Source: Dictyostelium discoideum (Eukaryota). Taken from it: a stretch of DNA of 64,000 nucleotides. The translations under genes and the position numbers were made by a program. The stretch is taken from NCBI GenBank assembly GCA_000004695.1, contig CM000150.2, positions 2,464,001 to 2,528,000 of the forward strand, given 5' to 3'. A model generated the notes under the pieces. The model searched no databases. It saw nothing but the letters and a program-made list of their open reading frames with translations, and was not told where the DNA came from. This document shows, piece by piece, positions 17,510 through 64,000 of the stretch. How positions within the stretch are numbered: position 1 is the stretch's first letter; the number at the start of each line of letters is the position of its first letter.

Positions 17510-18781
<1,272 letters not shown>

Positions 18782-18896
18782 TAAAAATAAATATTCTATA
18801 AATAAACCATTACTTTAATAAATTTTAAATTTATTGTTTTATTTTTGTTTTTTTTTTTTTTTGTTTTATTTTTTATTTTGTTTTATTTTTTTATTT

Positions 18897-21209: not shown

Positions 21210-21256
<47 letters not shown>

Positions 21257-21936
21257 AATCAACAACTACAAATAATAATAAATATTCAAAGAAATTAATT
21301 ACATTTTCAGATGAAGAAAAAGATATAATGAAAAATTTACCAAATAAAGAATATATGATTAGTAATGAAAAATCAATATTACTTGGATTGGTTGATATAA
21401 TTTATTCATATGCATATAATGAAAGAGTTAATATGGGTTATGAAAATATTGAATCAGCTTGGAACATTTGTAAATTGTCAGGTACATTATCATGTCTTGA
21501 TAATTTTTATAATTTATCATCAGTTTTAGAATGTTGTTTTAAGAGATCATTAACGTTCCCACTTTATCGTAGTTGGTTATTATCAGAACGTGTTCTTAGA
21601 GATACAAAACAAATTTTCCAATTAGGAAAAAGATCACTTTTAAAATGTTTATTAGATATTAAAAAGAAATTAGAATCTTCAGAATTTAAATACTACTTAA
21701 ATAGATTATATATTGATGATTATTGTATTTGGTTACAACATGCAAGTAAAAAGAAATTAAAATCATTACGTAATAAATTATCTGAATATGAAATGAAAAA
21801 GTCAATGATATCATGGCCATTAGAAGAATATGAAAAATTAGTTGAAGAAGAAGGTATGGTATTTGGTGAAGAAGAAGAGGATGAAGATAATAAAGAAGAA
21901 CAATTTGAATATGAAAATCAAGATGAAAGTGATTAA
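20101..21936 (+). CDS. SHQ1 (H/ACA snoRNP assembly factor) homolog: join(20101..20529,20614..21936)
   Basis: The N-terminal CS-type domain (MIIPKFSVDQNDEFIIVVAITPYIKASEADFYLLENQFKFYCKPYFLRLTFSHNIVENGKEKASFNV) is followed by an acidic stretch and a GTATGT donor. Exon 2 after AAAATAG carries SHQ1-domain motifs (MKNLPNKEYMISNEKSILLGLVDIIYSYAYNERVNMGYENIESAWNICKLSGTLSCLDNF). Confidence 0.8.
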
Positions 21937-37383: not shown

Positions 37384-37628
37384 TTACAGGGTCTTTTTGA
37401 TTAAAACATCTTTTTTGTCCAAACTTTTTTCTAAATCTTTTTTTATTTTATCGTCTGGTTCGTGATTGATGTTTATGACGTATTTGAATTGTTTTTTTTT
37501 TTTTAATTGAGTTTTATCCACAATTTCGCTTATTTTTTGTAGGCATTTGTGTTGCTTAATATTTGTGGTGTTGTTTGTGATTTTCATTTTATTTTCTTTC
37601 TATCTTTTTTATTTTTCTGATTAACTTG

Positions 37629-37686
<58 letters not shown>

Positions 37687-39392: not shown

Positions 39393-39458
<66 letters not shown>

Positions 39459-40109: not shown

Positions 40110-41723
40110 TTACTTCTTTAAAGATTGGATGATGAGATGAATCAATTGAATATTCAGTGAAAATGAATCGACAACATTGATTTGTCCACTATCTAAAGAA
40201 TTGATAACGATTGATATTAATAGATTCATATTATTTAATAAAACATTAACCATTGTAATATTTAAATTTTTAAAATAATTGGAAATCTTTAAATGACCAC
40301 ATTGTGATGTAGAATAATTTAAAATGTTTGAAAGTAGGTCAATAACATCACCACTAATACCACTAGTATCACCACTATTACCATATCTAAATAATAAAAA
40401 AGATAAAGTTACATCTAATAAAAGTAAATCACCTCTTTTTGAAATTTCAAATGCCAAATATTTGCAATTAAAAAATTTCTTATTTTTAAAAATTTTAATG
40501 ATTTGATTTTTATCATTATTGTCACAAGTATTATCGCAATTGTTAAATAAATTTGAGTTCAACTTTTTCCCATTATAATATTCCATTAAAATTAAATCTG
40601 AATTATCAACTAAACATCTTTTTGGTTCAATTTCTAAATACTTATTCCCACATATATTATAAACGTTGTTTATTAATTGATTTAATTATAGTATCTGAAT
40701 TAATTTTGCCTATTTTTTAAGAATATTGGTTTGGTAATTTAAAAACACAATTTTAAAAATATAAATTTCTTACCAATTGTGACCATTTATTTAAATAAAT
40801 AACTCCATTCCATATATAAGGATCACCATCATTCTTTTTTTTAACCAAAATATATTTATTCATTAGACCATCCAATTATTTAAAAGTTTTGATAGTTTCT
40901 TTTGCCAAAATTTTACTCTCAATTACTTCCAACTTAATGACTCCTGTTTTTTTCTCGTCAACCTTTTTTTTGAGGTCTTCAGAATAGAAAGAGGCTGATG
41001 ATACCCTTTTTGCTCCAGAACCTGGAAAAACTGTATTAATGGTTTGAATATTTAAATTACCATTAATAATATACTTTGGAATAATATGAAGTTCTTCTTT
41101 TGACAAAGTTATACAAATTGAATGCTGCGCGTGTTGATTATCTAAAGTCCCTGTACCGTAATTATAAAGAGGATGATATAAGGTTCTGGAGATTTTGGAA
41201 CACTGTGAATTACATGAATTCCCCCTTCTTCATTCCAAATAAAAAATCCTTTTGCATGTGCCTTTTTTAACACATGAAACATATGAAAAAAAAAGAATTA
41301 ACAACAAATTATAATAAAAAAAAAATAAAAATAAAAATTTAAAATTAACACATACACTATTATCTCCACGGGTTGATCATTATAGGTCAAACTATTATAT
41401 ATAGTTTTACCAGAGCTATTTGGATAACTCTGTTTGTATGTTGATGCAATTGGGTTTGGCTCATGCGGATTCCTAATATTATAATAAGCTAATTCATTAA
41501 TCACCCTATTTAATTCATTATCAGTATAAATAGCACCTCTACTGTGACTCAATTGTTCTAAAACCCACCATTCAACATTCTTTTCTATTTTAACTCCATC
41601 TTTATCTATAAACACCTGACTTTTTGTATAAACATTTTTTGTTGTTATACATTTTGGAGGAACACAATAAATTTGTGATATTAATAAAAATAAATATAGA
41701 ACTATTATATATTTATTTTTCAT
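40110..41723 (-). pseudogene. DNase II-like paralog, copy A. It keeps the signal-peptide exon (41298..41723) and the second exon (carrying one frameshift), but the third exon is deleted or diverged
   Basis: Exon 1 (MKNKYIIVLYLFLLISQIYCVPPKCITTKNVYTKSQVFIDKDGVKIEKNVEWWVLEQLSHSRGAIYTDN...) is paralogous to 55336..55734. Exon 2 (about 40800-41270) codes AHAKGFFIWNEEGGIHVIHSVPKSPE, then a 1-nt frameshift relative to copy B, then ...HAQHSICITLSKEELHIIPKY.... Downstream of the conserved intron (about 40715-40800) the sequence no longer codes DNase II motifs. The 158-aa ORF 40110..40586 is unrelated and low-complexity. Confidence 0.55.
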
Positions 41724-41744
41724 TTCTTAGATCTAGTATAAAAA

Positions 41745-41960
41745 AAAAAAAAAAAAAAATGAATCTATTTTTGCATTGAAATCTAAATTTGGATTTTTTT
41801 AAAAAAAAACGAACGAATTTTTGTTTCAGAAAAAAAAAAAAAAAAAAATTGATTCTTTTTTTTGTGAAAAAAAAAAAAAAAAAATGAATCTATTTTTGCA
41901 TTGAAATCTAAATTTGGATTTTTTTAAAAAAAAACGAACGAATTTTTTTTTTATTGTTTT
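41745..41960. promoter_or_regulatory. Divergent intergenic region between DNase II-like copy A (minus) and the giant gene (plus). It contains a ~70-bp direct repeat, present twice
   Basis: AAAATGAATCTATTTTTGCATTGAAATCTAAATTTGGATTTTTTTAAAAAAAAACGAACGAATTTTT occurs at about 41757-41826 and again at about 41880-41949. A related AAAAACGAACGAAAAT core recurs upstream of copy B (55880-55900). Any function is unknown. Confidence 0.3.
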
Positions 41961-42017
41961 CGAGCATCTCTACAAATCTTTTTTAATTTTTTTTTACGAA
42001 ACAGTTCTAAAATGTTT

Positions 42018-42049
<32 letters not shown>

Positions 42050-42113
42050 CTCAAAAAAAAATTATTAAATCTCAGAATATGTTTTTTTAAATCATATTTA
42101 AATTAAATAAAAA

Positions 42114-44047
42114 ATGGTAAAATATAAAATAATAATATCATTTTTATTTTTTATTTTATATTGCAATTGTTTCACATTTGGTAGTTACACATTTGATACA
42201 AAAAATTGGTCAACAAATGGTACACTATCATCATGTGTTTTTTATGATTTTGTAAATAACGATTATTATGATTTAAGAGCTATTGTCCACAATGATCATC
42301 AAGGTCCTTACAAAGCAAGTTTTCCTGCCGAACTTCCTGGTGGAATTCAAACACCTTATACAATGTATTTTAATCCTTGTTTTAATGATAATGTGTGTCC
42401 AGGTGGTCTTTCAGTAGGTTGTATGAGTTATGTGCAAAATTCACAAAAAATTCTTAATTCCGTTGGTTCACTTTCAGAGCCACATTCTATAACATTAAAT
42501 TCAGAAGGTATTTCTATTGAATATCAATCAGCTCTTTTACCATCAACAACATGTGCCTCTAATGGTAACCGTAGAACTTTGGTTTTATTTATTACTTGTA
42601 TCCCAACCGAAACATTTAAAATTATTGGTACTTATAACAGAAGAGTATTATGTGAACATACAATTTATATATCTTCAAAATTAGTTTGTAAAGATAGAGG
42701 AATATTATTTAATCAAGGTCTATTTTATGATTTAACACCAATGAAATTGTAAGTTGTTAAATTCTTTTTTATATTTTTTTTTTATTTTAATTTTTTTTTT
42801 TTTTTGTTTTTAATAAAAAAAAAAAAAACCAAACACGAAATTTTTTGTTTTTAATAAAAATTAAAATATCTAACCACTTTTTTTTCAATTTTTTATTTTT
42901 TTCTTCCCACAGATTAGCAAGCACTTCACACCAAATTACCAACAGTGACCAAACACAAGATATTCTCTTTAATTTATTCGGAAATGTAAATAGATGTGGT
43001 ACTTTCGGTACATCAACATTAAGTTATCAATCATGTATTTTAACAGTTGCTAATAAAGTGATCGATTATAAACTAGATTCAAGATATGCAACATCACCAA
43101 AATCAGTTATGGTAGGATCTCTCAGTCAACCAAGAACAATTACATTTACAAATGATGTAATAACCATAATTTATAGTTCAACAACTGGTTTCACAGAATG
43201 CTCATCAAATGGTAACAAATATTCATCAAAGTATATTTTAATTTGTGATCCATTCACAGAATATTATGTAGATAAATTTACATTAGAATCACAATGTATT
43301 TATCAAATTAAGGTTTATACTAAATACGCATGTCCAACATTACGTTTATTCAAACAAACACAATATTATGACCTTTCACCATTGATGTTGTAAGTATTCA
43401 ATTTATTCTTGTATTTCTTCAAAACAGTTATTAATTATTAATAATAAAATAAATAATAGGGATTCAACAAGAAATTATACAACAAGTCATATTACAGACG
43501 GATATGAGTATAATATTGTATTCAATATTGGTAATAAAGCACAAATGTGTAGCGATGCATTTAATGATTATTATTTTGCTTGTCAATATGATCCACGTTA
43601 TAAAAGTTTTAATCCACTTGCAAAGGCAAGTTTAGGTCAAAGAGTAACATTTGATTTAAATCAAGTTAAATTCGAATATACTTCACCAATGTCAGGTTGT
43701 TTAAGAACTTTTATTATTGTTTTAACTTGTGATGAAAACCAACATTATCAATTAGTTTCAACTTTAGAATCTCCTGCATGTGTATATACAGTAACAATTG
43801 AAACTAAATATGTATGTGAATCAACAATTTATTACAATAGATTCGACTATACATATTATGATATTACTCCAATAAAAACGTAAGTTTTAAATTAAATTTG
43901 AAATTAAATTTAAATATAAATAATAATATTAATAATATTAATAATCTTTATTGTCAACAACTAAAATATTAATTTAATTAGAGAAAAAGATAGTCCAAAT
44001 AAAATAGATATTGTTGTTGGTGGATATCCATATAGAGTAAGTAAATT

Positions 44048-44100
<53 letters not shown>

Positions 44101-47100
44101 AACAAATATTTTTCTAATAGCTTTTTTATGGTATCGGTAATACTGTTGATTATTGCGGAGAACAAGTGGGATCAGTCCCTGGTGTAGATTATCAAGCTTG
44201 TCAATATCTCAGTGGTCTTGTTATTCAAGTCGGTAGTTTAAAAAATACATCAATGATTCTTAATAAGGATGGTATAAGTATATATCATACCTCACCATTC
44301 GATTTAACCAAAGTGTGCCAAAATACAAGATATCAAAGAGTAAACATTTTAAATATGGTATGTGATCCAACAGCAACAAATGTTGTGGTCAGCGCTACTG
44401 AGACTGCCAACAATTGGGCATGTGAATATACAATCGAAATTAAAACTAAATATGCATGTTCAATTAATTATGCACCAGTATTACCAGTTGTTGGAAATCC
44501 ATGTTTATACAGTTGTACACCACCAGGTGCTTTAAATCCAAAAGCTATAGTTAGTGTACTTTTAAATTTAGGTGTTTGTTTCTCAGAGATTAATAAATAT
44601 GGTACAGGTGCACAATCATTACTTAATATATTTAAAGATACTTGGGTTTCAAATCACAATGGGTATGATGATTGGATGGGTGGACAACTTTATTCACTAT
44701 TATTAACAGGTAAACCACAGTCAACAATTTCACCATATGTTATTTCAATTACACATGATAATTTATGTACATATGGTGCCGATGGGTTAAGTAAAGCAAA
44801 AAATTCAATCAATGATTTTCTTACTATTACAAATGATCTTCTTGAAATTTCAAATCGTGCAGTTAGTTTAACCGTTACCAAATATACATATTCAGATGGA
44901 GCAATTACATTATCAACACATAAACTTTTATCAACATCAACTGGAGGTCTTGCAATTATTAAATACAAAAATTTGCTATGCTACTATTCAATAGTCCCAA
45001 ATTTACAAACTTTAATTATTGGGAGTTATTTGCTTTCTTGCCCATATTATTCACTACCAACTATTACAGTGCACAGTTTAACACCATCAATAGGGAAAGT
45101 TGGAGATACTATCACAATTAATGGTCAAAATTTAGATACAGATATATATGATGTTTATTTCAACATTATTGATGACAACAGTAAAATTAAAGCAACAATA
45201 ACATCAAGAACCGTAAATTTTGTAAAAGTAATTGTTCCAAATGGTTTTGGTAATGCATTAGTCTACACTCAAAATATACTTAATCCAACTACCTCCGATA
45301 AACTTTCATTTTCATATCCATCACCAACGATTGTCAAAGTAATTAGTCAACCATTTAGTACAGGTATCATCAATAGATTCTTTGTTATTGGTCAAAACCA
45401 TCGTTCTTTAATAACCAATATTGTTATTAATCCATACATCGATAATATTGAAAAAGAAGCAATTTATTGTGAAATTGAAAAGTATTGTCCAAGTTCATCA
45501 AAAATTCCATCGATTTCAGGATCAGCAGTAGGTCATCCATGTATTGATTCAACAGTTTACTCTGAGAATTCCCAGTTTTTCGATTATTCCAAGTATGATG
45601 TTTTTGTTTGTATCAAATCATCATTAGGTGTTGGAAGTGGTATCATTAAATTCCCATCACAAACATTTACATTTGCATACTCTTATAAAGCACCTCTCTT
45701 ATATTTTGTACCACCTGGCATTCGTATTCCAACTGATGGTGGTAGTTTTCAATTGGATGGTAAAAACTTTCCGCCAACACAAGAAATCATTGATCTCGGT
45801 TTAAACACACCTGTAATCATTTGGAATAATGATAATTTTGTTACATTCAAAGGAACAAATCTTGCAAATACCAATATCAATTGGAAGAGTTCGAAATCGA
45901 TTTTATGTGTTGCACCACCTGGTTTCGGTGGACCATTCATCGTTACAGTAACTGTCGGTAAACAAGTGTCAAAGACTATATATCCAAGTGATTTAGATGA
46001 AAATCCAACAAATTATAATTTATATTATTATCCCCCAGCAGTTGTTGACATATCAGAAGTTTCAACTGATGGTGGTGAAGTTATAATAAAAGGTACAAAT
46101 TTTATTCCAGCCTCGCTTAAAGATCAAATTAATAATCAACCAATAATCGGTTCACCTCATTCAGTAGAGTTTAATAATGTTTTATCTTCATCATGGACAT
46201 GGATTGATTCAACACATGTAAAAGCCATCGTACAAAAAGGTATTGGTACAATCTCTACAATTGTAAATGTTGGTGGTCAAAGATCTGATTTAAATCCAAT
46301 TCCTGTAAATTTTTACAAAAGACCTGAACTAGATAATAAAAAATATGAAAACTTTGCAAATAGTGATATTTTAATAACTGGTTCTAATTTTATACCAGTT
46401 GGTGTTTCAGCAGGTTCATCAAGTTCTGTCAAAATCGGAGGTATTCCCTGTAACTCTGTAACATGGGTAGATTCAAAATCTGTTATTTGTAATGTGCCAA
46501 TTGGAACTGGTGATAATTTAAATATCCAAGTAACAGTTGGAGGTCAACAAACCGAATTAAATGATTATTTCTCATATTTAGGGCAATGCGATTTCCTCTG
46601 TAGCGATTTATCAAATTTAGTAAGTTTTTAAACATTTTAATTACAGAAAAAAAAAAAAAAACTAAAAAATACTAATTTATTATCATTTTTATCTCAAAGG
46701 AATTAGCAAAAGTTATTGGGGAAAATAAAAAAGATTTAAAGAGTACTCTTTTATTAACAGGTGTATGTTTAGAACAAATTGAGCAATATAATTTCACAGA
46801 TATTAATGATGAAATTGAATCAAGTTGGATTGAAAACTCAATTATTGATGATTGGACAAGTGGTAAATTCTATAACTATTTCAAATCATCAGAATCATAC
46901 TCAACAGTTAAAACACTTGCAAAATATATTACACCAAAGAATCCATGTATTTATGAAAATAAAAGAGTAAAGAATTCATTAGATTACCTTTTTGAAATCA
47001 ATTCAGATATTTTCCATTTAATTGAACTTTCAATTTCATCAAAAATCAGTTATCCAGATTCACCATATGAAACTTATTTCTATGAATCATCAAGCAACCC

Positions 47101-50100
47101 AGAGTATGGTCTTTCAATTATTACATTTGATTCAGCAATTTGTAGCTTTACAGAATCAACTATTCAAGACTATCAAAGTGGAAAAGTATTACAATCATGT
47201 TCAATCATTCCAATTATAAATCAAGTAATTAATCCAACAACAACACTTCAAGCACCATATCAATATTCACTTACAATAATTGGTAGATTATTTGATAGTT
47301 CAACTAGAATATTCTTATCAGGTTATGAATGTCCAATCATTGGTAATATCGCTACTAATCAAAATGATTATATTCAAACTCTTAGTTGTTCAGTACCACC
47401 AGAAATCGAATCATACTCGGCCTCTCAAATTACTTTTTACAATGATTATAGTGAAAATAATATATATAATTTCTTGTTTTATTTTAAAAAATCATTCTTT
47501 TTTAAATATCCAATTTCAACAGTAACTCAAATTCAATACCCATCAAGTGGTCCAATTCAAATGAATTCTGAAATTAAAGTAATTGGTTTTAATTTCTTCC
47601 CATATGGTATTACAAATCCAAGCATTCAAGTTTTTATTGATGATCTTGAATTAACTGATACTATATTTGGATTAACAAGCATAAATGGAGTTGATTCATT
47701 TTCATTTATTGCTTCTGGTTTAGGTTCTTTAAAGTAAGTGAAAAAAAAAAAATTAAAAAAAAAAATTTATAAATATTTATTAATATTTAAAAATATTTTT
47801 TTACAGTTTCATTCGATTATTTTATAGTAATAGTTTACCGATGTTTATAAACGATGATATTAATTTAGAATTCTCATTTGAAAGACCAATTATTAATAGT
47901 ATATTACCAACAAATGGAGATTACAATACAAAAGTTACAATTAATGGTAATAATTTTAGAAAAGGTCAATCAGTAAAAATTGGAGACATATTAGTAAATG
48001 ATATTGAATTCATTTCAAACCAAGAGATTATTGCTTCAGCACCATTTGGATTTATTAGTGGACTTGTAGTTGTTTATTCAGATGATCAATTCAGTTTAGA
48101 AGAAATATCATTTAGTTATACTTCACCAATTATAGACCAAGTTATTCTTTCAAATTATGAATCAAAATTAAACACAACAGGTACAAATTATTTCACAGTA
48201 ATAGGTAGAGGTTTAGGTACATACATTGCAGAACAAGTCGATATTATTATCAATCAAGAGTTTTATGCAAGTTGCGAATTCGATTTCTGTGAAAGTTTAG
48301 AAATTATTGAAGATATAGATATAAAAGATCAAGGAATTTGTCAATATTTAAAATATAATAAATATCAATATATCAATGAAAACTTTGATATATTAAATTG
48401 TATTTTAACCGATTCGATTGGTAAAGATAAATCAATCAGTATCAAAATTTCAGAATTCCAAAACCAAACTTTCACCTACTCTTATTATGAACCATGGATT
48501 GAAAAATTAACACAAAACTCTTCATCAGCAAACACTGATGGTGGTGAAGTTATCGTTATAAATGGTTACAACTTTTTACCATTCGAAAATTTAAGTCCAT
48601 ACTATGAAAACAATGAAACTATTGCACAATGGTTAAATCAATCAGAAATATTAATTGGTGAAAGCTATCTTTGTCAATCAATTAATTGGACCAATTCCTA
48701 TGAATTAAATTGTACAATCCCACCAGGAATTGGTGTTAATCATACAATCATTGTAAAAGTAGGCCTTCAATCATCAAATCATACTGATTATTTGTATTCT
48801 TACGATTCACCAAACCTTGATACAATCAATAACTCCACTGGAAATGAAACACATTACTATTCTTCAACAGATGGTAACAATGAAATTATAATAACAGGTT
48901 ATAACTTTATTCCAAAAGAGTTATCAGATCATTACAACCAGAATGAAAATAAAACCATAAATTCAATACTATTAGGTAAACAATATTGTAATGAAACTAT
49001 TTGGATTAATTCAACAACAGTCAAATGTAAACCAATAGCAGGTATCGGGTCAAATTACAAAATTATCATTAAAGTTGGTAATCAAGATTCAAACGAAACC
49101 GTTTACTTCTCATATGAGAAGCCAATTTTAGATTTAAAGAATTACACAGGTTCAACAAATGGTAATACTGAAATTACAATAACAGGTATCAACTTTATTC
49201 CAAAAGAATTAGCAGATAATAATAATTTCAATCAATCAGAGAACTATATAATGATTGGTGATAATAAATGTAACGAAACTATTTGGATCAACTCAACAAC
49301 AGTTAAATGTAAACCAATATCAGGTACTGGTATCAATCATAGAGTTATAATAACAGTTGGTAATCAAAACTCAAATGAAACGGTCTACTTTTCATATGAT
49401 AAACCAATTTTAGATATTAAAAACTATAGTAGTCCAACTGATGGCAATACTGAAATCACAATAACAGGTGAAAACTTTATTCCAAAAGAATTAGCAGAAA
49501 ATAATAATTTCAATCAATCAGAGAACTATATAATGATTGGTAATAATGAATGTAATGAAACTATTTGGATCAATTCAACAACAGTTAAATGTAAACCGTT
49601 AGCAGGTATCGGGTCAAATTACAAAATTTTCATTAAAGTTGGTAATCAAGATTCAAATGAAACCGTTTACTTCTCATATGAGATGCCAATTTTAGATTTA
49701 AAGAATTACACAGGTTCAACAAATGGTAATACTGAAATTACAATAACAGGTATCAACTTTATTCCAAAAGAATTAGCAGATAATAATAATTTCAATCAAT
49801 CAGAGAACTATATAATGATTGGTGATAATAAATGTAATGAAACTACTTGGATCAATTCAACAACAGTTAAATGTAAACCAATATCAGGTACTGGTATCAA
49901 TCATAAAGTTATCATAACAGTTGGTAATCAAAACTCAAATGAAACGGTCTACTTTTCATATGATAAACCAATTTTAGATATTAAAAACTATAGTAGTCCA
50001 ACTGATGGAAATACTGAAATCACAATTACAGGTGAAAACTTTATTGAAAATTATAATCAAGAAAAACATAATGAAAATGATAATTTCGTTAGAATTGGTG

Positions 50101-52856
50101 AAAATAAATGTAATGAAACAAAGTGGATAAATTCGACAACAATTAAATGTAAAATAATTCAAGGTATTGGTTTAGATTATAAAATAGTTGTAACAGTTGC
50201 CAATCAACAATCAAATGAAAATGTTTTCTTTTCATATGAAAAACCAATGATTGACAGTAAAACACTATTAGCATCAACCAGTGGCAGTGAAACTATTAAA
50301 ATTACAGGTACTAATTTCATTCCATCAACTTTAGTAGAACATTACAACAAAGAAGAAAATAAAGATAACTCAATAAATTCAGTTACTATCAATAACGAGT
50401 TTTGTAATGATATTACATGGATTAGCTCAACAGAACTAACATGTAAACCATTAGCAGGAGTTGGAACCAATCATACTATATTCATTTTGGTTGGAACTCA
50501 AAAATCAAATGAAGAAAACTCATTCTCATATAAACCTCCGAATATTGAAGAGTTTAAATACTACACAGCACCAACACATTCCAATAAAATTATTACTATA
50601 ACTGGTGAAAACTTTATTCCAATCGAATTATTATCAAAAGACAACAGCAATAGTTCAGTACTTATTGATAATATAAAATGTGAAGAAATCAAATGGATTG
50701 ATTCAACAAAAGTTTCATGTCAAGTTCCAGTAGGTCAAGGTAAAGATTTATCGATTAAAGTTAAAATTGAAAATCAAGAAACTGAAGAAAATCAACAATT
50801 TTCATATGATAAACCATTTATTCAATCAATCAATCCAAATAAAGGAAGATGTAATCAAGAAGTATTAATTACAATTCAAGGTGATAGTTTTGGAAAGAGT
50901 GATCAACTAATTAAAATTGGTAATAACGAATGTCAAGATATTCAATTCTATCCAAATCATACATTTACATGTAAAGTTCCAATCGTGGAGAATTCAATTG
51001 AATCCATTGTTTTATTAAATGTTGGCAATCAAGATTCAAACGATAACATTACATATAAATACTATGGACCACCAGAAATTAAAAGTATTGGTTTACCATC
51101 ATATCTTTCATTCAAAGGTGATGATTTAATTACAATCATTGGTAATAACTTTATAGAATATGATGATGGATCTGATGAAATTGTTAAATTTAATAATGAA
51201 CCAACAACTATCATTGAAAACACAGAAACATACATTAAAATTAAAACTCTTAGTGGTGATGAATTTAATGTACCAATTGCTGTAGAATTAAATGGTCAAA
51301 TAAGTAATACAGATACTTCATTCGTTTACTCAAATCCAATAATTGAAAGTGTAACACCATCATCAAGTAGCTCAAAATCAAATACTAATATCATCATTAA
51401 AGGACATAATCTTGGGTATTTAACAAACACTCCCAAAATTACAATTGGAAGTAGTAATTGTTTAAATATCAAAACTATATCTCCAAATGAAATTCATTGC
51501 ATCGTTATGAAATCAAGCGCAGGCACTAAACAATTAACATTAACCTATGAAAGTTATCAACCAACCTATTCACAATTCACTCACAAAAACGATGATGACA
51601 GTGATAGCCACGATGATGATGATGATGACCATAAAAACAATAATGGACCAAAAAACACCATATTAAGTATTCTTGGAGGTATAATTGGAGCAGCAGCATC
51701 AGCAGCCGTAAGTGGATTTATAACAAGCATTTTCGGTGGTGCGACATCAGTAGCCACAGCAGCAGCAACAGCAACAGCAGCAGGTACTGCGGTAGCAGCA
51801 GCAACTACAGCGTCAACAGCAACAGCTATTGCCGGTGCAATTACCGAAGGTGTTGCAGTGGCCTTTACAGGGGTATCAGTAATAGCAGCAACAGCAGGTG
51901 GTGTTGTTATTACTTCAATTGTAACAGCAACAGCCATCCTTATTTCAGGTGGAAGTACACAATCACCAACTCCAACCATAGCTCCAACTATTTCACCAAC
52001 TCCAACGCCAACCGATAACTATTGGGTAAGATGTATGGTCGATTATTCAAGATTAACTTTACAAGTCGATAATCTTTACGGTCAAGATATAGTATGTATT
52101 GATGGTAATGGAATTTCATCAATTTTCAACGAATCATTCTCTTGTAAACCTGATCTTATTAACGATGGTATGATATGTGCTCAACAACATCAAGATGGAA
52201 CAAATTCAACAACCACATTTGGTAATTCAACATTAATTTGTCATATTGACTCAACAAAATCATGTGAAATTTCACCACCATTCATCATACCATCCGATCC
52301 AATTGAAGATGATGAATATTCAAATATTCTAGAATGTCAATATAATCTCATTGAAAATTCATTATCAACACACTCTAATAATAGTCCACTAAGATGTTAT
52401 AATAATGAAACTGAAAATTACTTCATTATGAATACTACACTTTCATGCTCAAAAGATGAATCATTAAGTCAAGATAAAGATACGATTTCTTGTTTAGCAG
52501 ATACAGATGACACTCAAATCTTTTTCTATAAGAACTCAATTACATGCATTACAGATTATCCATACTATAGATGTACAATGAAATCTCAACCATCACAAGA
52601 TGATAACATAATTCCAAAACCAACATTACCACCAATTCCATCAATTGATGATGATTCCACATGTATTTATGATTCAGCCAATTCATATTCAATAGATCTC
52701 CAACTAACGACTGGAACTAATGCTAAATGTCCAAAAAATGAAAAAGAACTTCGTTATGATCTTTCAACTTCTCTAACATGCACTGATTATATCACACTTA
52801 AAAACTCCACTTATTCAATTTCATATTCAAATTACATTTGCATTAAAACAAAATAA
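42114..52856 (+). CDS. Giant secreted or membrane protein (~3,390 aa): signal peptide, ~5 MRH/CI-MPR-like Cys repeats, >=15 IPT/TIG repeats, a Gly/Ala/Thr/Val-rich hydrophobic segment, and a C-terminal Cys-rich domain. Model: join(42114..42748,42913..43389,43460..43879,43982..44036,44121..46619,46700..47733,47807..52856)
   Basis: All six donors are GTAAGT. The acceptors are CCCACAG, AATAG, ATTAG, CTAATAG, TCAAAG and TTTACAG, and the phases check out (635+477+420+55+2499+1034+5050 = 10170 nt). The N-terminus MVKYKIIISFLFFILYCNCF is a signal peptide. Exons 1-3 and 5 each code ~150-aa modules ending C-x-Y-x-[IV]-x-[IV]-x-TKY[AV]C followed by YYD[LI][ST]P. That is the same motif order as cation-independent mannose-6-phosphate receptor (CI-MPR) repeats, C.Y.F.W.T..AC then [YF]DLSPL. 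Exons 5-7 code repeated TDGG...I.G.NFIP...C....W.....VKC....G.G......V.VG.Q.S modules (IPT/TIG-like). A segment ILSILGGIIGAAASAAVSGFITSIFGGATSVATAAATATAAGTAVAAATTASTATAIAGAI...VVITSIVTATAILISGG sits at 51660-51960. This is followed by a Thr/Pro linker and a ~290-aa Cys-rich C-terminus. Confidence 0.75.
48990..50040 (+). repeat. Near-identical tandem repeats inside exon 7 (two alternating ~270-bp TIG modules, A-B-A'-B')
   Basis: ...ITGYNFIPKELSDHYNQNENKTINSILLGKQYCNETIWINSTTVKCKPIAGIGSNYKIIIKVGNQDSNETVYFSYEKPILDLKNYTGSTNGNTEITITGINFIPKELADNNNFNQSENYIMIGDNKCNETIWINSTTVKCKPISGTGINHRVIITVGNQNSNETVYFSYDKPILDIKNYSSPTDGNTEITITGENFIPKELAENNNF... repeats almost verbatim, at above 95% nucleotide identity. 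Confidence 0.8.
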
Positions 52857-53194
52857 AAACAATTAAAAAATTTTAAAAAACAAAATGATATAATAATTTA
52901 ATGAAATAATTTAATTACTATTTTTACTATTTTTTTTATTTTCAAAAAACTGTAATTAAATTATTTCATTAAATCATTATGTCACACCACCCAAAATTCA
53001 ATTCTGAAAACTTTTTTTATTTAATTACCCTTAAGAAAAAATTAAATGTGAAAATAAATGTTATATTTATTTTAGTTTTGTTTTTTTTTTTAAATTATCA
53101 TTAATAATAATGATGCACCATTTGGTATTATCTAATTTTGAAAACTAAAAAAAAAAAAATTTATTTTTGGAATTAGTTAAATTTAAAAAAAAAT

Positions 53195-55300
53195 TTAAAT
53201 TAAAATATAATTAATACTTACACCTTTGGTATATTCACCCAAAACTTTTGTAAATTCCTTAATGGAATTGATGTTTTGTAGATCACCATGTCTATTTTCA
53301 GTTAAGAGAATACAATAGATAAGATGATCTTGGCAATCTGGATGATATTTAATGATTTTTGAGTCTGTATCACTTGGAAAAGCTTTACATATTTTTTTAT
53401 TAATTTCATTATAATCCTTATGACCTTTTTCGCTATCACTTTGATCGCCTTCGATTTTATTTGGGAATTTAAATGGTACTAAATCATTGATTTCAACTTC
53501 TTTCAATTGAATGATGTTTTTATTTTTAATAAATTTCAATTTTTCATAAAGTTCTTTTACTAAATCAATATTTTTTAAATCGATATATATCTTATCTGGG
53601 AAAGGTGTGAGTATTGATGTTGGTTCGATAATGGTATTTTGTGTTAGAGCAGTTACCTTTTTATTATCTCTTGATGAGGTAAGTGTAAATGTTGATTCAA
53701 CATAGATATCTTTAAACAATTGGTAAGATTTGGATTTTTCAAAGCTACAAGTGACATCATCATTATCACATAAAATAATTTCCCCATTGATTGATGGAAA
53801 CACATTGAAATCGAATAACTCTGATTTGTATATATTTTGATCCTTAAGTTGGGTTAATAGTGGAATATAAACATTGTCATAACCATAGTTATATTCATTT
53901 GAAAATAATTTATCTTCATCTTTTTCATTATTGTAAACGATATTAAATGGATTCAAATGATAGTATTTTTCATCATCTCCATAACCTTTTACCTTGGTTT
54001 CAAAGTTTAGCTTTCTGTTACCTAAAACATTAGATCATTTGGATATTTTTCTATTAATTCGTTTAAATTCAACTTTTGACCTGCAATGCTATTTAATCTT
54101 AAAGAAGCTTTTCTAAGATATTGACCATCCTCTGGGTGTCTAATTATACCAACTCTTCTGTAAAAGTATTCAGAAAGATATTTCATTTCGTCACTGCAAA
54201 AAGAACCACCTCCACGTGCCTCTTGCCTTCCATGCCAATTTAAATCACCAAAGCAAATAGTCCCACCACCGCCACCGCTATATGCTTTATCCATATAATT
54301 GATTTGATAAGACATTTTTGAATGGTCACTTCCTGAATCAGAGCTAATAACTGTTGACCAAGGTGTTTCGAATCTGTAAGAAAGATATATTGATACAACT
54401 GCTGGAGACATTTCATTTTTTCCTTTTTCCATCTTTGTTTGAGTATGGACCATTGTTTTAAAATTATTACCATTTTTAAAACTATAGATGTAATGCCAAA
54501 GTATAAAAAATTTAATTTTTTCCTTGTGAGTATTTTCAATTTTATCACTATACTCTTTATAAAGGTGTGTATTTGTTGTTTGAATGAAGTAATCCCCTTT
54601 ATTTTTACTCTCATAAATTTTATTATAGTGAACATTTGTTTCATGAGCTGTATCTGATGATGTAATATTTTTGTTTAGAATTAAATCTGCCTATTTTAAG
54701 AATGTAAGTTTGATGATTTATTAACACAAATTTATAATTAAAATTACTTACCAATTGTGACCATTTATTTAAATAAATAATTCCATCCCATATATCAGGA
54801 TCAACTTTATTCTTTTTTTTAACAAAAATATTATCACTCATTAGATCATCCAATTCTTTAAAAGTTTTGGGAATTTTTGTTTCTAAAATTGAACTATCAA
54901 TTTTTTCCAACTTAATGACTCCTGAGCTTATCTTTTCAACCTCTGTTTGAAGATTTTCGGAATAAGAATCGGCTGATGATACCTTTTTAACCTTTTTACC
55001 ATTTCCTGTTGAAACTGTATTAATGGTTTGAATATTTAAATTACTATAAATAATATACTTTGGAATAATATAAAGTTCTTCTTTTGACAAAGTTATACAA
55101 ATTGAATGTTGAGCATGTTGATGATTTAAAGTATTTTTATCGAAATTAAAAAGAGGTTCATATCCTGTTTCTGGAGATCTTGGAACACTGTGAATTACAT
55201 GAATTCCCCCATTTTCATTCCAAATGAAAAATCCTTTTGCATGTGCCTTTTTTAAATAAATAAATTAAAAAAAAAAAATATGTTAACAAATAATGATAAC

Positions 55301-55337
<37 letters not shown>

Positions 55338-55734
55338 AATAATAAACACAAACACTATCTTCACCACTACTGAGCTGATCATTATAAGTCAAACTATTAT
55401 ATATAATTTTGTTGTCAGATTTATTTGGTAAACTCTGTTTGTATGTAGATGTAATAGGGTTTGGTTCTTTTGGATCTCTAATATTATAATTTGCAATTTC
55501 ATTTATCTCTGAACTTCCTCCTTTTAATGTGTTATCAGTATAAATAGCACCTTGACTGTGACTTAATTGTTCTAAAAACCACCATTCGACATTCTTTTCT
55601 ATTTTAACTCCATCCTCAAATACTTGACTATCCTTGTAAATATTTTTTGTTGTTATACATTTTGGAGGATCGTTACAATAAATAGGTGATATTAATACAA
55701 ATAAATATAAAAAAATAATATATTTATTTCTCAT
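53195..55734 (-). CDS. DNase II-like (acid deoxyribonuclease) paralog, copy B. Exons approx complement(join(54022..54690,54751..55246,~55350..55734)). The C-terminal extension ORF 53195..53956 is out of frame because of a 4-nt deletion relative to copy C
   Basis: The N-terminus MRNKYIIFLYLFVLISPIYC is a signal peptide. Exon 2 codes KKAHAKGFFIWNENGGIHVIHSVPRSPETGYEPLFNF (first DNase II HxK motif). Exon 3 codes ...SDSGSDHSKMSYQINYMDKAYSGGGGGTICFGDLNWHGRQEARGGGSFCSDE (second HxK and the RGGG..C motif) and then ends KYPNDLMF* at 54022. The paralog-conserved continuation (KLNFETKVKGYGDDEKYYHLNPFNIVYNNEKDEDKLFSNEYNYGYDNVY...SINYILI*) is in another frame; ccaaatgatctaatgttttagg here corresponds to ccacagcgtctaaaagaaattttagg in copy C. 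Intron donors are GTAAGT. Confidence 0.6.
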
Positions 55735-56164
55735 TTTCTTAAGTCTAATGTTATAATGTTTGTTTCAATTTTTTAAAATTGGGTGTGTTTTTGCGAAAAA
55801 AAAAAAAAAAAAAAAAAAAATGGCTTTGTCGTCAACAAAAAAGAAAAAAAACTAAAATTGGATCATTTAAAATAAAATAAAAAAACGAACGAAAATATTT
55901 TTTTTTAATCGTTTTTAGATGGTTTTACCACTCCTTTGATTATTGAAAATCTTTTTTAAATATTTTTAGATTTTTTTTTTTTTATTTTTTTCGACCCATT
56001 ATTTTATAAAAAAAAAAATAATAAAAATTACCCCCACAAACCGCTTTTTTTTTTTTTTTTCACAAAGCCTGGTTTTTAATTTTTTTAACACTTTTTGGCT
56101 TTGCATCTTTATCGCTTAAAATACGGTTTGGAAAATACAACATTTTTTTTTTAATCAACCATAC

Positions 56165-56196
<32 letters not shown>

Positions 56197-56212
56197 TCGT
56201 ATTGAAATTAAA

Positions 56213-57808
56213 AAAAAATGGTAAAATTTTAAATAGTTATATCATTTTTATTATTTATTTTATATTTTAATTGTTTCACATTTGGTAGTTACACATTTGA
56301 TACAAAAAATTGGTCAACAAATGGTACACTATCATCATGTGTTTTTTATGATTTTGTAAATAACGATTATTATGATTTAAGAGCTATTGTCTATCCTGAT
56401 CATCGAGGTTCCCACAGAGCAAGTTTCACAGCTGAGCTTTCTGGTGGAATTCAAACACCATATACAATATATTTTAATCCTTGTTTTAATGATCATATGT
56501 GTCCAGGTGGTCTTTCAGTAGGTTGTATGCAAAAATAGAGGAGTATTATTTAATCAAGGTCTATTTTATGATTTAACACCAATGAAATTGTAAGTTATTA
56601 AATTCTTTTTCATATTTATTTTTTTATATTTTTTTTTTTTAAAATAATTATCAAAAAATAAAAAAAAAAAAGAACCAAACACAAAATTTCAAAATAAAAA
56701 AATCTAATCTTTTTTCACTTTTTTTTATTTTTTTTTAATTTTTTTATTTTTATTTTTTTTTCCCACAGATTAACAAGCACTTCACACCAAATCACCAATG
56801 ATGACCATACAAAAGATATTCTCTTTAATTTATTCGGAAATGTAAATAGATGTGGTACTTTCGGTACATCAACATTAAGTTATCAATCATGTATTTTAAC
56901 AGTTGCTAATAAAGCGATCAATTATAAACTAGATTCAAGATATGCAACATCACCAAAATCAGTTATGGTAGGATCTCTCAGTCAACCAAGAACAATTACA
57001 TTTACAAATGATGTAATAACCATAATTTATAGTTCAACAACTGGTTTCACAGAATGCTCATCAAATGGTAACAAATATTCATCAAAGTATATTTTAATTT
57101 GTGATCCATTCACAGAATATTATGTAGATAAATTTACATTAGAATCACAATGTATTTATCAAATCAAAGTTTATACTAAATACGCATGTCCAACATTACG
57201 TTTATTCAAACAAACACAATATTATGATCTTTCGCCATTGATGTTGTAAGTATTCAATTTAATTAAAAAACTTTTTTGGTGTTTTATTCTTTTGCGCTTA
57301 TTAATTATTAATAATAAAATAAATAATAGGGATTCAGCAAGAAATTATACAACAAGTCACTTTACAGACGGATCTGAGTTTTTTATTGTATTCAATATTG
57401 GTAATAAAGCACAAATGTGTAGCGATGCATTAAATGATTATTATTTTTCTTGTCAATACGAACCACGTCAAAAATTTTTTTATCCACTTGCAAAGGCAAG
57501 TTTAGGTCATAGAGTAACATTTGATTTAAATCAAGTTAAATTTGAATATACTTCACCATCAACAACAACTTGCTCATCAAATTCCTATAAAAGAGATCTT
57601 ATTGTTATTTTAAATTGTGATGAAAACCAACATTATCAATTAGTTTCAACTTTAGAATCTCCAACATGTGTATATACAATAACAATTAAAACTAAATATG
57701 TATGTGAATCAACAATTTATTACAATAGAATTAACTATACCTATTATGATATTACTCCAATAAAAACGTAAGTTTTAAATTAAATTTAATTATAAATTAT
57801 AAATTATA

Positions 57809-57874
<66 letters not shown>

Positions 57875-60800
57875 TATAACTTTATTAACAACCAAAACTA
57901 TTAATTTTAATTAGAACAAAAGATAGTCCAAAAACTGTAGATATTGTTGTTGGTGGATATCCATATAAAGTAAGGGATAATTTTTAAATTTTTAAATTTT
58001 TTTTTTTTTTTTTTTTTTTTTTTGACAAACACCAAACGTGTGTGAAACTAAAATTTAAATATTTTATATATATTTAAAAATGGTTACTAACTTTACTTTA
58101 TTAATTTTTTCCAACAGCTTTATTACGGTATAGGTAATACTGTTAATTATTGCTCAAATCAAGTGGAGTCAGTTCCAGGTGTTGATTATCAAGCTTGCCA
58201 ATATCTCAGCGGTCTTGTTATTCAAGTCGGTAGTTTAAAAAATACATCAATGTATATAAGTAATAATGGTATAAGTATATATCATACCACACCATTTGAT
58301 TTAACCAGAGTATGCCAAAATACAAGATATCAAAGAGTGATACAACAGCAATTAACGTTGTGGTCAGCGCTACGGAGACTGCCAATTATTGGGCATGTGA
58401 ATATACAATCGAAATTAAAACCAAATATGCATGTCCAATTAATTATGCACCAGTATTACCAGTTGTTGGAAATCCATGTTTATACACTTGCACACCACCA
58501 GGTGCTTTAAATCCAAAAGCTATAGTTTGTGTACTTTTAAATTTAGGCTTGTTTCTCAGAGATTAATAAATATGGTACAGGTGCACAATCATTACTTGTT
58601 ATATTCAACAATACTTGGGTTTTAAACCACAACGGATATGATGATTGGATGGGTGGACAACTTTATTCACTATTACTAACAGGTAAACCACAAACATCGA
58701 TTTCACCATATGTTAGTTCAATTACACATGATAATTTATGTACATATGGTACCAATGGGTTAAGTAAAGCAAAAAATTCAATCAATGATTTTCTTACTAT
58801 CACAAATGATCTTCTTGAAATTTCAAATCGTGCAGCCAGTTCAACCGTTACCAAATATACATATTCAGATGGAGAAATTACATTATCAACACATAAACTT
58901 TTGTCAACATCAACTGGAGGTCTTGCAATTATTAAATACAAAAATTTGCTATGCTACTATTCAATAGTTTCAAATTTACAAACTTTAGTTATTTCGAATT
59001 ATTTGCTTTCATGTCCATATTATTCACCAACTATTACAGTGTTCAGTTTAACACCATCAACAGGGCAAATTGGAGATATTATCACAATTAATGGTCAAAA
59101 TTTAGATACAAATAGATATGATGTTTATTTCAACATTATTGATGACAACAGTAAAATTAAAGCAACAATAACATCAAAGTAATTAGTCAACCATTTAGTA
59201 CAGATATCATCAATAGATTCTTTGTTATTGGTCAAAACCATCGTTCTTTAATAACCAATATCACCATTTATCCATATATCGATAATATTGAAAAAGAAAC
59301 AATATATTGTGAAATTGAAAAGTATTGTCCAAGTTCATCAAAAATTCCATCGATTCCAGAATCAGCAGTAGGTCATCCATGTATTGATTCAACAGTTTAC
59401 TCTGAGAATTCTCAGTTTATAAGGTACAAATTTTATTCCAGCCTCGCTTGCAGATCAAATTAATAATCAATCATTAATTGGTTCACCAAATTCAGTCACG
59501 TTTAATAATGTTTTATCTTCATCATGGAAATGGATTAACTCAACACATGTAAAAGCCATCGTACAAAAAGGTATTGGAGCAATCCTTACAATTGTAAATG
59601 TTGGAAGCCAAAGTACTGAAACGAGTCCATATCCCGTAATTTTTTATAAACAACCTGAATTAGATAATAAAAAATATGAAAACTTTGCAAATAGTAATAT
59701 TTTAATAACTGGTTCTAATTTTGTACCAGTTAGTGTTTCAGCAGGTTCATCAAGTTCTGTCAAAATCGGAGGTATTCCCTGTAACTCTGTAACATGGGTA
59801 GATTCAAAATCTGTTATTTGTAATGTACTAATTGGAACTGGTGATAATTTAAATATCCAAGTAACAGTTGGAGGTCAACAAACCGAATTAAATAATTATT
59901 TCTCATATTTAGGGCAATGCGATTTCCTCTGTAGCGATTTATCAAATTTAGTAAGTTTTTAAACATTTTAATTACAGAGGAAAAAAAAAACTAAAAAATA
60001 CTAATTTTTTACATTATAATCTCAAAGGAATTAGAAAAAGTTATTAGAGAAAATAAAAAAGATTTAAAGCAATAGTTCAGTACTTATTGATAATATAAAA
60101 TGTGAAGAAATCAAATGGATTGATTCAACAAAAGTTTCATGTCAAGTTCCAGTAGGTCAAGGCAAAGATTTATCGATTAAAGTTAAAATTGAAAATCAAG
60201 AAACTGAAGAAAATCAACAATTTTCATATGATAAACCATTTATTCAATCAATCAATCCAATTAAAGGAAGATGTAATCAAGAAGTATTAATTACAATTCA
60301 AGGTGATAGTTTTGGAAAGAGTGATCAACTAATTAAAATTGGTAATAACGAATGTCAAGATATTCAATTCTATCCAAATCATACATTTACATGTAAAGTT
60401 CCAATCGTGGAGAATTCAATTGAATCCATTGTTTTATTAAATATTGGCAATCAAGATTCAAACGATAACATTACATATAAATACTATGGACCACCAGAAA
60501 TTAAAAGTATTGGTTTACCTTCACATCTTTCATTTAAAGGTGATGATTTAATTACAATCATTGGTAATAACTTTATAGAATATGAAGATGGATCTGATGA
60601 AATTGTTGTTAAATTTAATAATGAACCAACAACTATCATTGAAAACACAGAAACATACATTAAAATTAAAATTCTTAGTGGTGATGAATTTAATGTAACA
60701 GCAACAGCCATCCTTATTTCAGGTGGAAGTACACAATCACCAACTCCAACCATAGCTCCAACTATTTCACCAACTCCAACGCCAACCGATAACTATTGGG

Positions 60801-61629
60801 TAAGATGTATGGTCGATTATTCAAGATTAACTTTACAAGTCGATAATCTTTACGGTCAAGATATAGTATGTATTGATGGTAATGGAATTTCATCAATTTT
60901 CAACGAATCATTCTCTTGTAAACCTGATCTTATTAACGATGGTATGATATGTGCTCAACAACATCAAGATGGAACAAATTCAACAACCACATTTGGTAAT
61001 TCAACATTAATTTGTCATATTGACTCAACAAAATCATGTGAAATTTCACCACCATTCATTATACCATCCGATCCAATTGAAGAGATGAATATTCAAATAT
61101 TTTAGAATGTCAATATAATCTCAATGAAAATTCATTATCAACACACTCTAATAATAGTCCACTAAGATGTTATAATAATGAAACTGAAAATTACTTCATT
61201 ATGAATACTACACTTTCATGCTCAAAAGATGAATCATTAAGTCAAGATAAAGATACGATTTCTTGTTTAGCAGATACAGATGATACTCAAATCTTTTTCT
61301 ATAAGAACTCAATTACATGCATTACAGATTATCCATACTATAGATGTACAATGAAATCTCAACCATCACCAGATGATAACATAATTCCAAAACCAACATT
61401 ACCACCAATTCCATCAATTGATGATGATTCCACATGTATTTATGATTCAGCCAATCCATATTCAATAGATCTCCAACTAACGACTGGAACTAATGCTAAA
61501 TGTCCAAAAAATGAAAAAGAACTTCGTTATGATCTTTCAACTTCTCTAACATGCACTGATTATATCACACTTAAAAACTCCACTTATTCAATTTCATATT
61601 CAAATTACATTTGCATTAAAACAAAATAA
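56213..61629 (+). pseudogene. Decayed tandem duplicate of the giant MRH/TIG gene (5.4 kb versus 10.7 kb)
   Basis: It is co-linear with 42114-52856 at roughly 90-97% identity, but it carries the following lesions: (1) the start is disrupted (ATGGTAAAATTTTAA); (2) ~290 bp of exon 1 is deleted at 56530 (..ggttgtatg|caaaaatagagg..); (3) frameshifts and deletions occur in the exon-5 homolog at about 58335, 58550, 59175 and 59425; (4) a ~3.9-kb deletion joins the exon-6 start to the late TIG repeats at 60075; (5) a ~660-bp deletion at 60700 removes the Gly/Ala-rich segment; (6) a 1-nt deletion lies at 61090. The exon 2-4 homologs (56763-57968) and the C-terminal Cys-rich region (60700-61629) are still largely open. 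There is an (ATA)n microsatellite at 57812-57870. Confidence 0.75.
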
Positions 61630-61953
61630 AAACAATTAAAAAATTTTAAAAAACAAAATGATATAATAATTTAATGAAATAATTTAATTACTATTTTTAC
61701 TATTTTTTTTTATTTTCGAAAAACTGTAATTAAATTATTTCATTAAATCATTATGTCATACCACCCAAAATTCAATTCTGAAAACTTTTTTTTTATTTAA
61801 TTACCCTTAAGAAAAAATTAAATGTGAAAATAAATGTTATATTTATTTTAGTATTGTTTTATTAATTTAAATTATTAATGCACCGTTTATCTAATTTTGA
61901 AAACTAAAAAAAAAAAAATTTATTTTTGGAATTAGTTAAATTTAAAAAAAAAT

Positions 61954-64000
61954 TTAAATTAAAATATAATTAATACTTACACCTTTGGTATATTCACCCA
62001 AAACTTTTATTAATTCATCATTGGATTTGATGTTTTGTAGATCACCATGTCTATTTTCAGTTAAGAGAATACAATAGATAAGATGATCTTGGCAATCTGG
62101 ATGATATTTAATGATTTTTGAGTCTGTATCACTTGGAAAAGCTTTACATATATTTTTATTAATTTCATTATAATCCTTATCATCATGACCTTCTTCGCTA
62201 TCACTTTGATCGCCTTCGATTTTATTTGGGAATTTAAATGGTTCTAAATCATCTTTGATTTTAACTTCTTTCAATTGAATGATGTTTTTATTTTTAATAA
62301 ATTTCAATTTTTCATAAAGTTCTTTTACTAAATCAATATTTTTTAAATCGATATATATCTTATCTGGGAAAGGTGTGAGTATTGATGTTGGTTCGATAAT
62401 GGTATTTTGTGTTAGAGCAGTTACCTTTTTATTCTTTTTTGATGAGGTAAGTGTAAATGTTGATTCAACATAGATATCTTTAAACAATTGGTAAGATTTG
62501 GATTTTTCAAAGCTACAAGTGACATCATTATCATCACATAAAATAATTTCCCCATTGATTGATGGAAACACATTGAAATCGAATAACTCTGATTTGTATT
62601 TATTTGTAGTTTGATCCTTAAGTTGAGTTAATAATGGAATGTAAACATTGTCATAACCATAGTTATATTCATTTGAAAATAATTTATCTTTTTCATTATT
62701 GTAAACGATAATAAATGGATTCAAATGATAGTATTTTTCATCATCTTCATAACCTTTTACCTTGGTTTCAAAGTCTAGCTTTCTGATACCTAAAATTTCT
62801 TTTAGACGCTGTGGATATTTATCTATTAATCCGTTTAAATTCAACTTTTGACCTGCAATGCTATTTAATCTTAAAGAAGCTTTTATAAGATATTGACCTT
62901 TATCTGGGTGTCTAATTATACCAACTCTTCTGTAAAAGTATTCAGAAAGATATTTCATTTCGTCACTGCAAAAAGAACCACCTCCACGTGCCTCTTGCCT
63001 TCCATGCCAATTTAAATCACCAAAGCAAATAGTTCCACCACCGCCACCGCTATATGCTTTATCCATATTATTGAATTGATAAGACATTTTTGAATGGTCA
63101 CTTCCTGAATCAGAGCTAATAACTTCTGACCAAGGTGTTTCGAATCTGTAAGAAAGATAAACTGATTCAACTGCTGGAGATATTGCATTTAGTCCATTTT
63201 CGATCTTTGTTTGAGTATGGACCATTGTTTTAAAATTATTACCATTTTTAAAATTATCGATGTAATGCCAAAGTATAAAAAATTTAATTTTTTCCTTGTG
63301 AGCTTTGTCAATTTTTTTATTATACGCTTTATAAAGGTTTTTATTTGTTGTTTGAATGAAATAATCCCCTTTATTTTTACTCTCATAAATTTTATTATAG
63401 TGAACATTTGTTTCATGAGCTGTATCTGATGATGTAATATCTTTGTTTAGAATTAAAACTGCCTATTTTAAGAATGTAAGTTTGATGATTTATTAACACA
63501 AATTTATAATTAAAATTACTTACCAATTGTGACCATTTATTTAAATAAATAATTCCATCCCATATATCAGGATCACCATCATTCTTTTTTTCAACAAAAA
63601 TATATTCACTCATTAGACCATCCAATTCTTTAAAAGTTTTGGGAATTTTTGTTGCTAAAATTGTACTATCAATTTCTTCCAACTTAATGACTCCTGAGCT
63701 TATCTTTTCAACCTTGGTTTTGAGATTTCTGGAATAAGAATCGGCTGATGATACCTTTTTAACCTTTTGACCATTTCCTGTTGAAACTGTATTAATGGTT
63801 TGAATATTTAAATTACTATAAATAATATACTTTGGAATAATATAAAGTTCTTCTTTTGACAAAGTTATACAAATTGAATGTTGAGCATGTTGATTTTTTA
63901 AAGTCTTTTTATTGAAATTAAAAAGAGGTTCATATCCTTTTTCTGGAGATTGTGGAACACTGTGAATTACATGAATTCCCCCTTCTTCATTCCAAATGAA
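61954..64000 (-). CDS. DNase II-like paralog, copy C (apparently intact; the 5' signal-peptide exon lies beyond the window end). Model: complement(join(61954..63462,63524..>64000))
   Basis: Exon (>64000..63524): ...FIWNEEGGIHVIHSVPQSPEKGYEPLFNF...LSKEELYIIPKYIIYSNLNIQTINTV...NKWSQL, then a GTAAGT donor. Exon 63462..61954 (1509 nt, in frame) codes AVLILNKDITSSDTAHETNVHYNKIYESKNKGDYF...MVHTQTKIENG...DHSKMSYQFNNMDKAYSGGGGGTICFGDLNWHGRQEARGGGSFCSDE..., which continues without a stop into the ~250-aa extension ...RKLDFETKVKGYEDDEKYYHLNPFIIVYNNEKDKLFSNEYNYGYDNVYIPLL...CQDHLIYCILLTENRHGDLQNI...SINYILI*. Confidence 0.7.

Follow-up and report, generated by a model that had tools for sequence, protein, structure and literature searches.

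Does the long open sequence that follows the nuclease motifs of a DNase II-like gene in Dictyostelium discoideum belong to the enzyme, and if so, what is it? DNase II is normally compact, with ~350 residues and one domain pair; it is a metal-independent endonuclease active at acid pH, built as a pseudo-dimer of two phospholipase-D (PLD)-like halves. We addressed the question in a 64,000-nucleotide (nt) stretch of the D. discoideum genome (contig CM000150.2; hereafter the window, whose coordinates are used throughout), an A+T-rich sequence (17–31% G+C) in which an initial annotation had flagged positions 61954–63462. We consider it probable that an intact DNase II-like gene (copy C), here corrected to the minus strand, has the flagged stretch as its exon 3, and that the 3′ two-thirds of this exon encode a C-terminal module of ~300–325 residues (the tail) in one polypeptide with the nuclease, to which the module would be an accessory.

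The structure of copy C is the first support for this reading (Table 1). A minus-strand open reading frame (ORF) of 423 aa at 61954–63225 contains DHSKMSYQ, CFGDLNWHGRQEARGGGSFC, and all peptides quoted in the initial annotation, with zero stops, and upstream of 63225 the frame stays open to the intron 2 acceptor (i.e., 63462). This continuous ORF confirms that the reading frame runs from the DNase II motifs into the tail without a stop, as had been claimed. The same architecture was found by tblastn at two other loci, L002 and L003 (encoding proteins of 793 and 834 aa, respectively): the genes have four exons, and a single exon, of 476–510 codons in these two, encodes the C-terminal half of the core together with the whole tail. 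Neither an intron nor a stop separates core and tail in copy C, L002, or L003, and the tail is not a separate gene. The position of intron 2 is the same, and that of intron 3 is kept, in L002 and L003. The TAA at 61954 that had been taken as the 3′ end is not the true end, as exon 3 ends at 61981 and is followed by intron 3 and exon 4. This ending, FSKLDKRCINNLN and a stop codon, is shared by P0005, the 798-aa model of copy C in a second D. discoideum assembly (L004) that matches the window at 99.95% identity across 12 kb; with P0005 as guide, copy C is ~798 codons long, and its exon 2 is 99.4% identical to P0005 residues 133–292. The initial annotation was also right that a typical DNase II ends soon after the RGGG motif: the only solved DNase II, 5i3e/5unb (358 aa), stops 41 residues past it, and the tail thus represents ~300 residues past the canonical end, which makes it longer than the ~250 aa first proposed.

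The tail is found throughout a family of proteins. A full-length profile search with a 799-aa query yielded 30 proteins, nearly all of 740–834 aa and covering 92–100% of the query, and 28 of these Dictyostelium proteins (708–834 aa) were aligned (A4, full length; A5, tail), with the tail included in the collinear full-length alignment. They derive from D. discoideum strains, “cf. discoideum” isolates, D. dimigraforme, D. purpureum, D. citrinum, and D. firmibasis. Four AX4 paralogue models carry the tail (DDB_G0270642, 782 aa; DDB_G0291033, 745 aa; DDB_G0290837, 759 aa; DDB_G0267616, 748 aa); the model for a second copy in the window (copy B, DDB_G0270848) has 514 aa. Other members include D. 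purpureum DICPUDRAFT_156612 (816 aa) and D. firmibasis RB653_009548, RB653_009549, and RB653_009596. The alignments show the tail to be fixed in a family of 708–834-residue proteins of Dictyostelium (D. discoideum group). All family proteins are labelled uncharacterized in public proteomes, with Pfam DNase_II as the sole recorded domain, and no mention of the five AX4 gene IDs was found in the literature searched. The description of the tail as “novel” therefore holds in that it matches no described domain, but not in that public protein models already include it. An orphan status of the tail, suggested by word-indexed searches (tail alone, two proteins; four-sequence tail alignment, one), was overturned by the 30-protein full-length search; an exhaustive phmmer search with the tail returned two full-length proteins only (793 and 834 aa), both 50%-identity cluster representatives.

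Sequence comparison further shows that the tail is under coding constraint. Tail identity to copy C is 67% for L002 and 31% for L003, and omega (the ratio of non-synonymous to synonymous substitution rates) was 0.56 for the tail and 0.76 for the C-terminal half of the core against L002, and 0.44 and 0.43, respectively, against L003. Purifying selection on the tail is thus similar in strength to that on the catalytic C-terminal half, and weak in both, in a fast-evolving family. In the 28-sequence alignment, the invariant tail residues are E49, F116, C126, C133, C256, D276, L278, and C281 (E523, F590, C600, C607, C730, D750, L752, and C755 of the full-length protein). Four of the tail cysteines are invariant, one is nearly so, and one further cysteine near the C-terminus, encoded in the last exon, is kept in most family members; exactly six cysteines occur in 24 of the 28 tails, and copy C/P0005 has all six (pattern FE...F..C......C...C...C.D.L..C). 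The coding constraint proposed in the initial annotation is borne out by these invariant cysteines in 28 proteins and by relatives at 31–67% identity (omega 0.44–0.56), but the similarity between copies B and C that had been offered as evidence for it is not informative, because the two are recent duplicates. Between them, 6 synonymous and 56 non-synonymous changes were counted (core, 3 and 29; tail, 3 and 27), with a synonymous divergence (dS) of ~0.02 and omega of ~2, and their introns 2 and 3 are 100% identical. The excess of non-synonymous changes reflects either relaxed constraint or diversifying selection.

Copy B itself, the translation of which equals DDB_G0270848 exactly and which is 99–100% identical to P0002 (tblastn), is cut short by a deletion of 4 nt where core and tail meet (between 54030 and 54031, relative to copy C), which yields ...KYPNDLMF followed by TAG at 54024–54022. 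The extension is thus out of frame in copy B, as had been noted. When changes were polarised with a third D. discoideum copy at locus L001 as outgroup, the B lineage had 0 synonymous and 20 non-synonymous codon changes (0 and 11 within the stranded extension) and the C lineage 5 and 12. Copy B is a recent duplicate whose tail was cut off by the frameshift. The in-frame indels of copy B were also considered as proof that its tail is translated, and this was rejected as unproven, since they lie at short A-rich and GAT-repeat sites where slippage may give multiples of three, and also because of the pattern of codon changes in the B lineage.

The core of these proteins is DNase II-like by several measures. 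Full-length P0005 matched Pfam DNase_II (PF03265; gathering cut-off, 23 bits) with 123.4 bits (E = 1.5e-35), and fragments also scored (copy C exon 3, 24.4 bits; copy B, 25.9 and 25.4 bits). Both catalytic HxK motifs, one per PLD-like half in DNase II, are invariant among the 28 sequences, namely AHAKG (H128, K130) and DHSK (H414, S415, K416), with the first of copy C lying beyond the window edge and being present in P0005 and copy B. The block from DHSK to RGGG aligns with residues 278–317 of 5i3e, which was the sole, and marginal, match of the family profile among PDB sequences (E = 0.047). A hydrophobic N-terminal leader (MRNKYIIFLYLFVLIS.IYC), signal-peptide-like by eye, occurs in copy B and all family members. 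Mechanistically, a location in the lumen of the secretory or endolysosomal system would be expected from the leader and the cysteine framework, and an acid DNase activity from the intact HxK pairs.

The tail, in turn, resembles nothing described. Prediction by AlphaFold from the single sequence was of no use (predicted local distance difference test [pLDDT] 34), and an AF2 model from a 23-sequence alignment reached a pLDDT of 78.7 and a predicted template modelling score (pTM) of 0.74. The predicted layout consists of a short helical linker, a beta-rich region (tail residues 47–173), a long helix (184–202), a disordered acidic insert (233–243), and a helix/strand C-terminal region. A Pfam scan of the copy C tail found no family at E values up to 1, a tail profile gave chance-level matches only among PDB sequences, and a Foldseek search of the tail model against PDB and BFVD returned nothing with E < 0.07, with DNase II not among the matches. 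These searches bear out the earlier suggestion of a distinct module belonging to no recognised family. The isoelectric point (pI) of the tail is 4.5–5.8 in 24 of the 28 sequences, the core being often neutral to basic. Because the tail is acidic, has no conserved His/Lys/Asp triad, and did not match DNase II by fold, we infer that it is non-catalytic, and it would then serve a secreted or lysosomal nuclease as a disulfide-stabilised accessory module. Its role would most likely lie in binding or targeting (e.g., to a substrate surface, partner, or sorting receptor) or in modulating access to the active site.

The main rival to an accessory module, and one that we consider unlikely, is that the tail is a co-translated C-terminal pro-domain or autoinhibitor, which would hold the nuclease in an inactive state or accompany it through the endoplasmic reticulum and Golgi (e.g., as an acidic, DNA-mimicking lid on the basic DNA groove) and would later be clipped or released at acid pH in lysosomes or phagosomes. 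The charge difference between tail and core would suit such a role, as would the low-complexity or flexible linker ahead of the beta-rich region (pLDDT 57 over the first 10 residues), but no cleavage motif was identified, and a canonical DNase II needs no such inhibitor, its activity being acid-pH-dependent. That the tail-less core of copy B is still an ORF annotated as a gene also fits a pro-domain, although the codon changes in the B lineage suggest that this copy is perhaps merely a dying gene. A different reading, which seems to us quite unlikely, takes the tail as an undescribed fold or family confined to Dictyostelium and sees in these proteins fast-evolving, tandemly amplifying secreted nucleases coupled in the genome to giant MRH/TIG-repeat surface-receptor genes, in which the tail would act as an arms-race recognition or delivery module rather than as a housekeeping lysosomal appendage; if true, the setting would be discrimination of prey, pathogens, or non-kin.

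Several observations weigh against a nuclease with an accessory tail. The first ~133 codons of copy C fall outside the window, and we infer read-through of the mRNA across the core/tail junction from conservation only. Recent paralogues show omega of 1 or higher, and some copies, those of the window included, may be decaying. The acidity of the tail speaks against simple electrostatic binding of DNA. Moreover, an AX4 protein model for copy C was not found in a database of 5.8 billion sequences in which the 99.8%-identical P0005 is present, and in the AX4 annotation copy C may be either a pseudogene or missing altogether. This last absence would also be expected if the tail lay outside the nuclease, as an unrecognised intron, a 3′ untranslated region, a gene of its own further downstream, or the remnant of a pseudogene open by chance in copy C, and the AX4 model ending copy B at the junction and the omega of ~2 between copies B and C point the same way. 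We nevertheless regard this as very improbable and largely refuted already, given that the same one-exon, stop-free fusion exists in genes with only 31% and 67% tail identity, that the tail recurs in 28 proteins, representing at least five named species, and that it has invariant cysteines and omega below 1 against diverged relatives. The tail is also unlike the introns in composition (73% A+T, coding-like, versus 84–92%; core part of exon 3, 69%), which argues against a chance ORF; no donor-like hexamer was found inside the copy C tail, and tail indels among copies B, C, and the L001 copy are all multiples of three. A hidden intron at AAG/GTAAAAGG (~62750) was rejected, as the sequence is 72% A+T, is conserved as coding in L002 and L003, and lacks a consensus donor. 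Finally, a degenerate third PLD-like repeat arising from a duplication within the DNase II fold is suggested by the pseudo-dimeric nature of DNase II and a tail size of about one and a half halves, but is extremely improbable; alignment of the tail with each core half (hhalign) found no similarity, a weak test given that the half-versus-half control failed likewise.

Table 1. Features of the three DNase II-like copies and the neighbouring giant gene, in window positions
Feature	Positions	Strand	Details
Copy A	40771–41723	−	Exons 1–2 only; paralogue resembling DDB_G0270642; without C-terminal half or extension (tblastn, ORFs)
Giant gene	42114–52856	+	MRH/PRKCSH_1-like repeats, then 1671-aa ORF
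Copy B stranded extension	53222–54036	−	+1 frame open right past the frameshift; 90% identical to copy C tail; 253-aa ORF
Copy B (DDB_G0270848)	54022–55734	−	AX4 chromosome 1, 514 aa; exons ~55734–55351, 55246–54749, 54690–54022
Giant gene, degraded copy	56194–61629	+	
Copy C exon 4	61862–61903	−	13 codons, FSKLDKRCINNLN and stop; holds the sixth extension cysteine
Copy C intron 3	61904–61980	−	77 nt, GTAAGT...TTTAG, 92% A+T; donor GGT/GTAAGT at 61981/61980
Copy C exon 3, C-terminal extension	61981–62913	−	311 codons, RHPDKG to EYTKG; exon and frame shared with core
RGGG motif, copy C	62988–62977	−	In exon 3 core part
DHSK, second catalytic motif, copy C	63099–63088	−	In exon 3 core part
Copy C exon 3, core part	62914–63462	−	C-terminal half of DNase II-like domain; 63462 is the first base of the exon
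Copy C intron 2	63463–63523	−	61 nt, GTAAGT...AATAG, 84% A+T
Copy C exon 2	63524–64000	−	Encodes FIWNEEGGIHVIHSVP...KWSQL, part of the DNase II-like core; clipped by window edge (translation)

The genomic setting of these copies is a tandem segmental duplication that covers 40697–64000 with a unit of ~14.5 kb (40697–55747 versus 54678–64000, 80–98% identity). Each unit contains a minus-strand DNase II-like gene and a plus-strand giant MRH/TIG-repeat gene. The 1671-aa ORF of the latter comprises at least 12 IPT/TIG repeats, with a hydrophobic stretch towards the C-terminus, the giant gene of the second unit is internally deleted (50646–51275 corresponds to 60068–60700, and 51920 onwards to 60694 onwards), and strain ACTFIT models the giant genes as single proteins of 3197–3382 aa. 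In L002 and L003, too, the DNase II-like gene has a similar giant MRH and TIG gene divergently upstream of it, which makes the pairing syntenic across diverged lineages. The 4-nt deletion of copy B is present in L004 too (18764–21402), yet the product annotated there has 775 aa; this model probably bridges the frameshift by an artificial short intron. The gene model P0008, from another strain, keeps intron 2 in frame as VSSFNYKFVLINHQTYTLNNY (A4 columns ~363–382), an annotation artefact, and P0001 (463-aa model; L001 9916–11424), which represents the third D. discoideum copy, begins at the intron 2 acceptor. The core of this L001 copy carries two frameshifts (−1 and −2) with ~100 nt between them, yet its tail is wholly open; the copy shares intron 3 identically with copies B and C and adjoins another TIG/ComC_SSD gene. 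Elsewhere in the window, a direct repeat of ~330 bp (37395–37688 versus 39128–39454, 88% identity) flanks a minus-strand 444-aa ORF (37983–39317) without a Pfam match.

Overall, the tail is a lineage-restricted module, so far undescribed, that is attached to a known enzyme; since public proteomes already contain the proteins themselves, it counts as a modest curiosity rather than a discovery. What the locus offers is a lineage-specific DNase II-like family with an extra module of ~300 residues, predicted to be disulfide-rich, that domain databases do not describe. Once defined, this module would allow at least five D. discoideum genes, with their relatives, to be annotated better and would provide a handle on the dictyostelid expansion of DNase II, while the current understanding of DNase II catalysis is unchanged. 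For annotation, the lessons are that copy C is intact and that DDB_G0270848 represents a frameshift-truncated duplicate.

Compared with canonical DNase II (PF03265; human DNASE2 and Burkholderia thailandensis 5i3e/5unb), the Dictyostelium proteins have the same Pfam domain and HxK pair and a putative N-terminal secretory leader, but their core is larger (~470 aa with internal insertions versus ~330 aa), and the long family goes on for ~345 residues after RGGG (as measured in P0005) where canonical enzymes stop after ~40. Ig-like, CnaB, or FN3-type beta-sandwich accessory modules of secreted proteins (RrgA 2ww8, PapC usher domains, SpyCatcher) are also among the closest known systems. DNase II is usually a single- or few-copy gene that has expanded in particular lineages. 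In Trichinella spiralis, 125 DNase II genes (plancitoxin-like) were predicted (PMC4148230), and among dictyostelid lineage-specific expansions “Deoxyribonuclease II activity” is enriched at the level of Gene Ontology terms (PMC8535579); the parts of these two reports consulted mention no C-terminal module of the copy C kind, and both expansions are like the window, where DNase II-like genes show tandem duplication in progress. Within Dictyostelium, a distant clade of the family has a tail identity of 14–21%, is without the acidic EGDQSDSEEGHDD insert, and bears an extra Pro-rich acidic C-terminal tail. The annotated paralogues and orthologues (26–71% overall identity, 92–99% of the full length covered) have the architecture of copy C, with leader, DNase II-like core, and tail, and share its tail cysteine framework.
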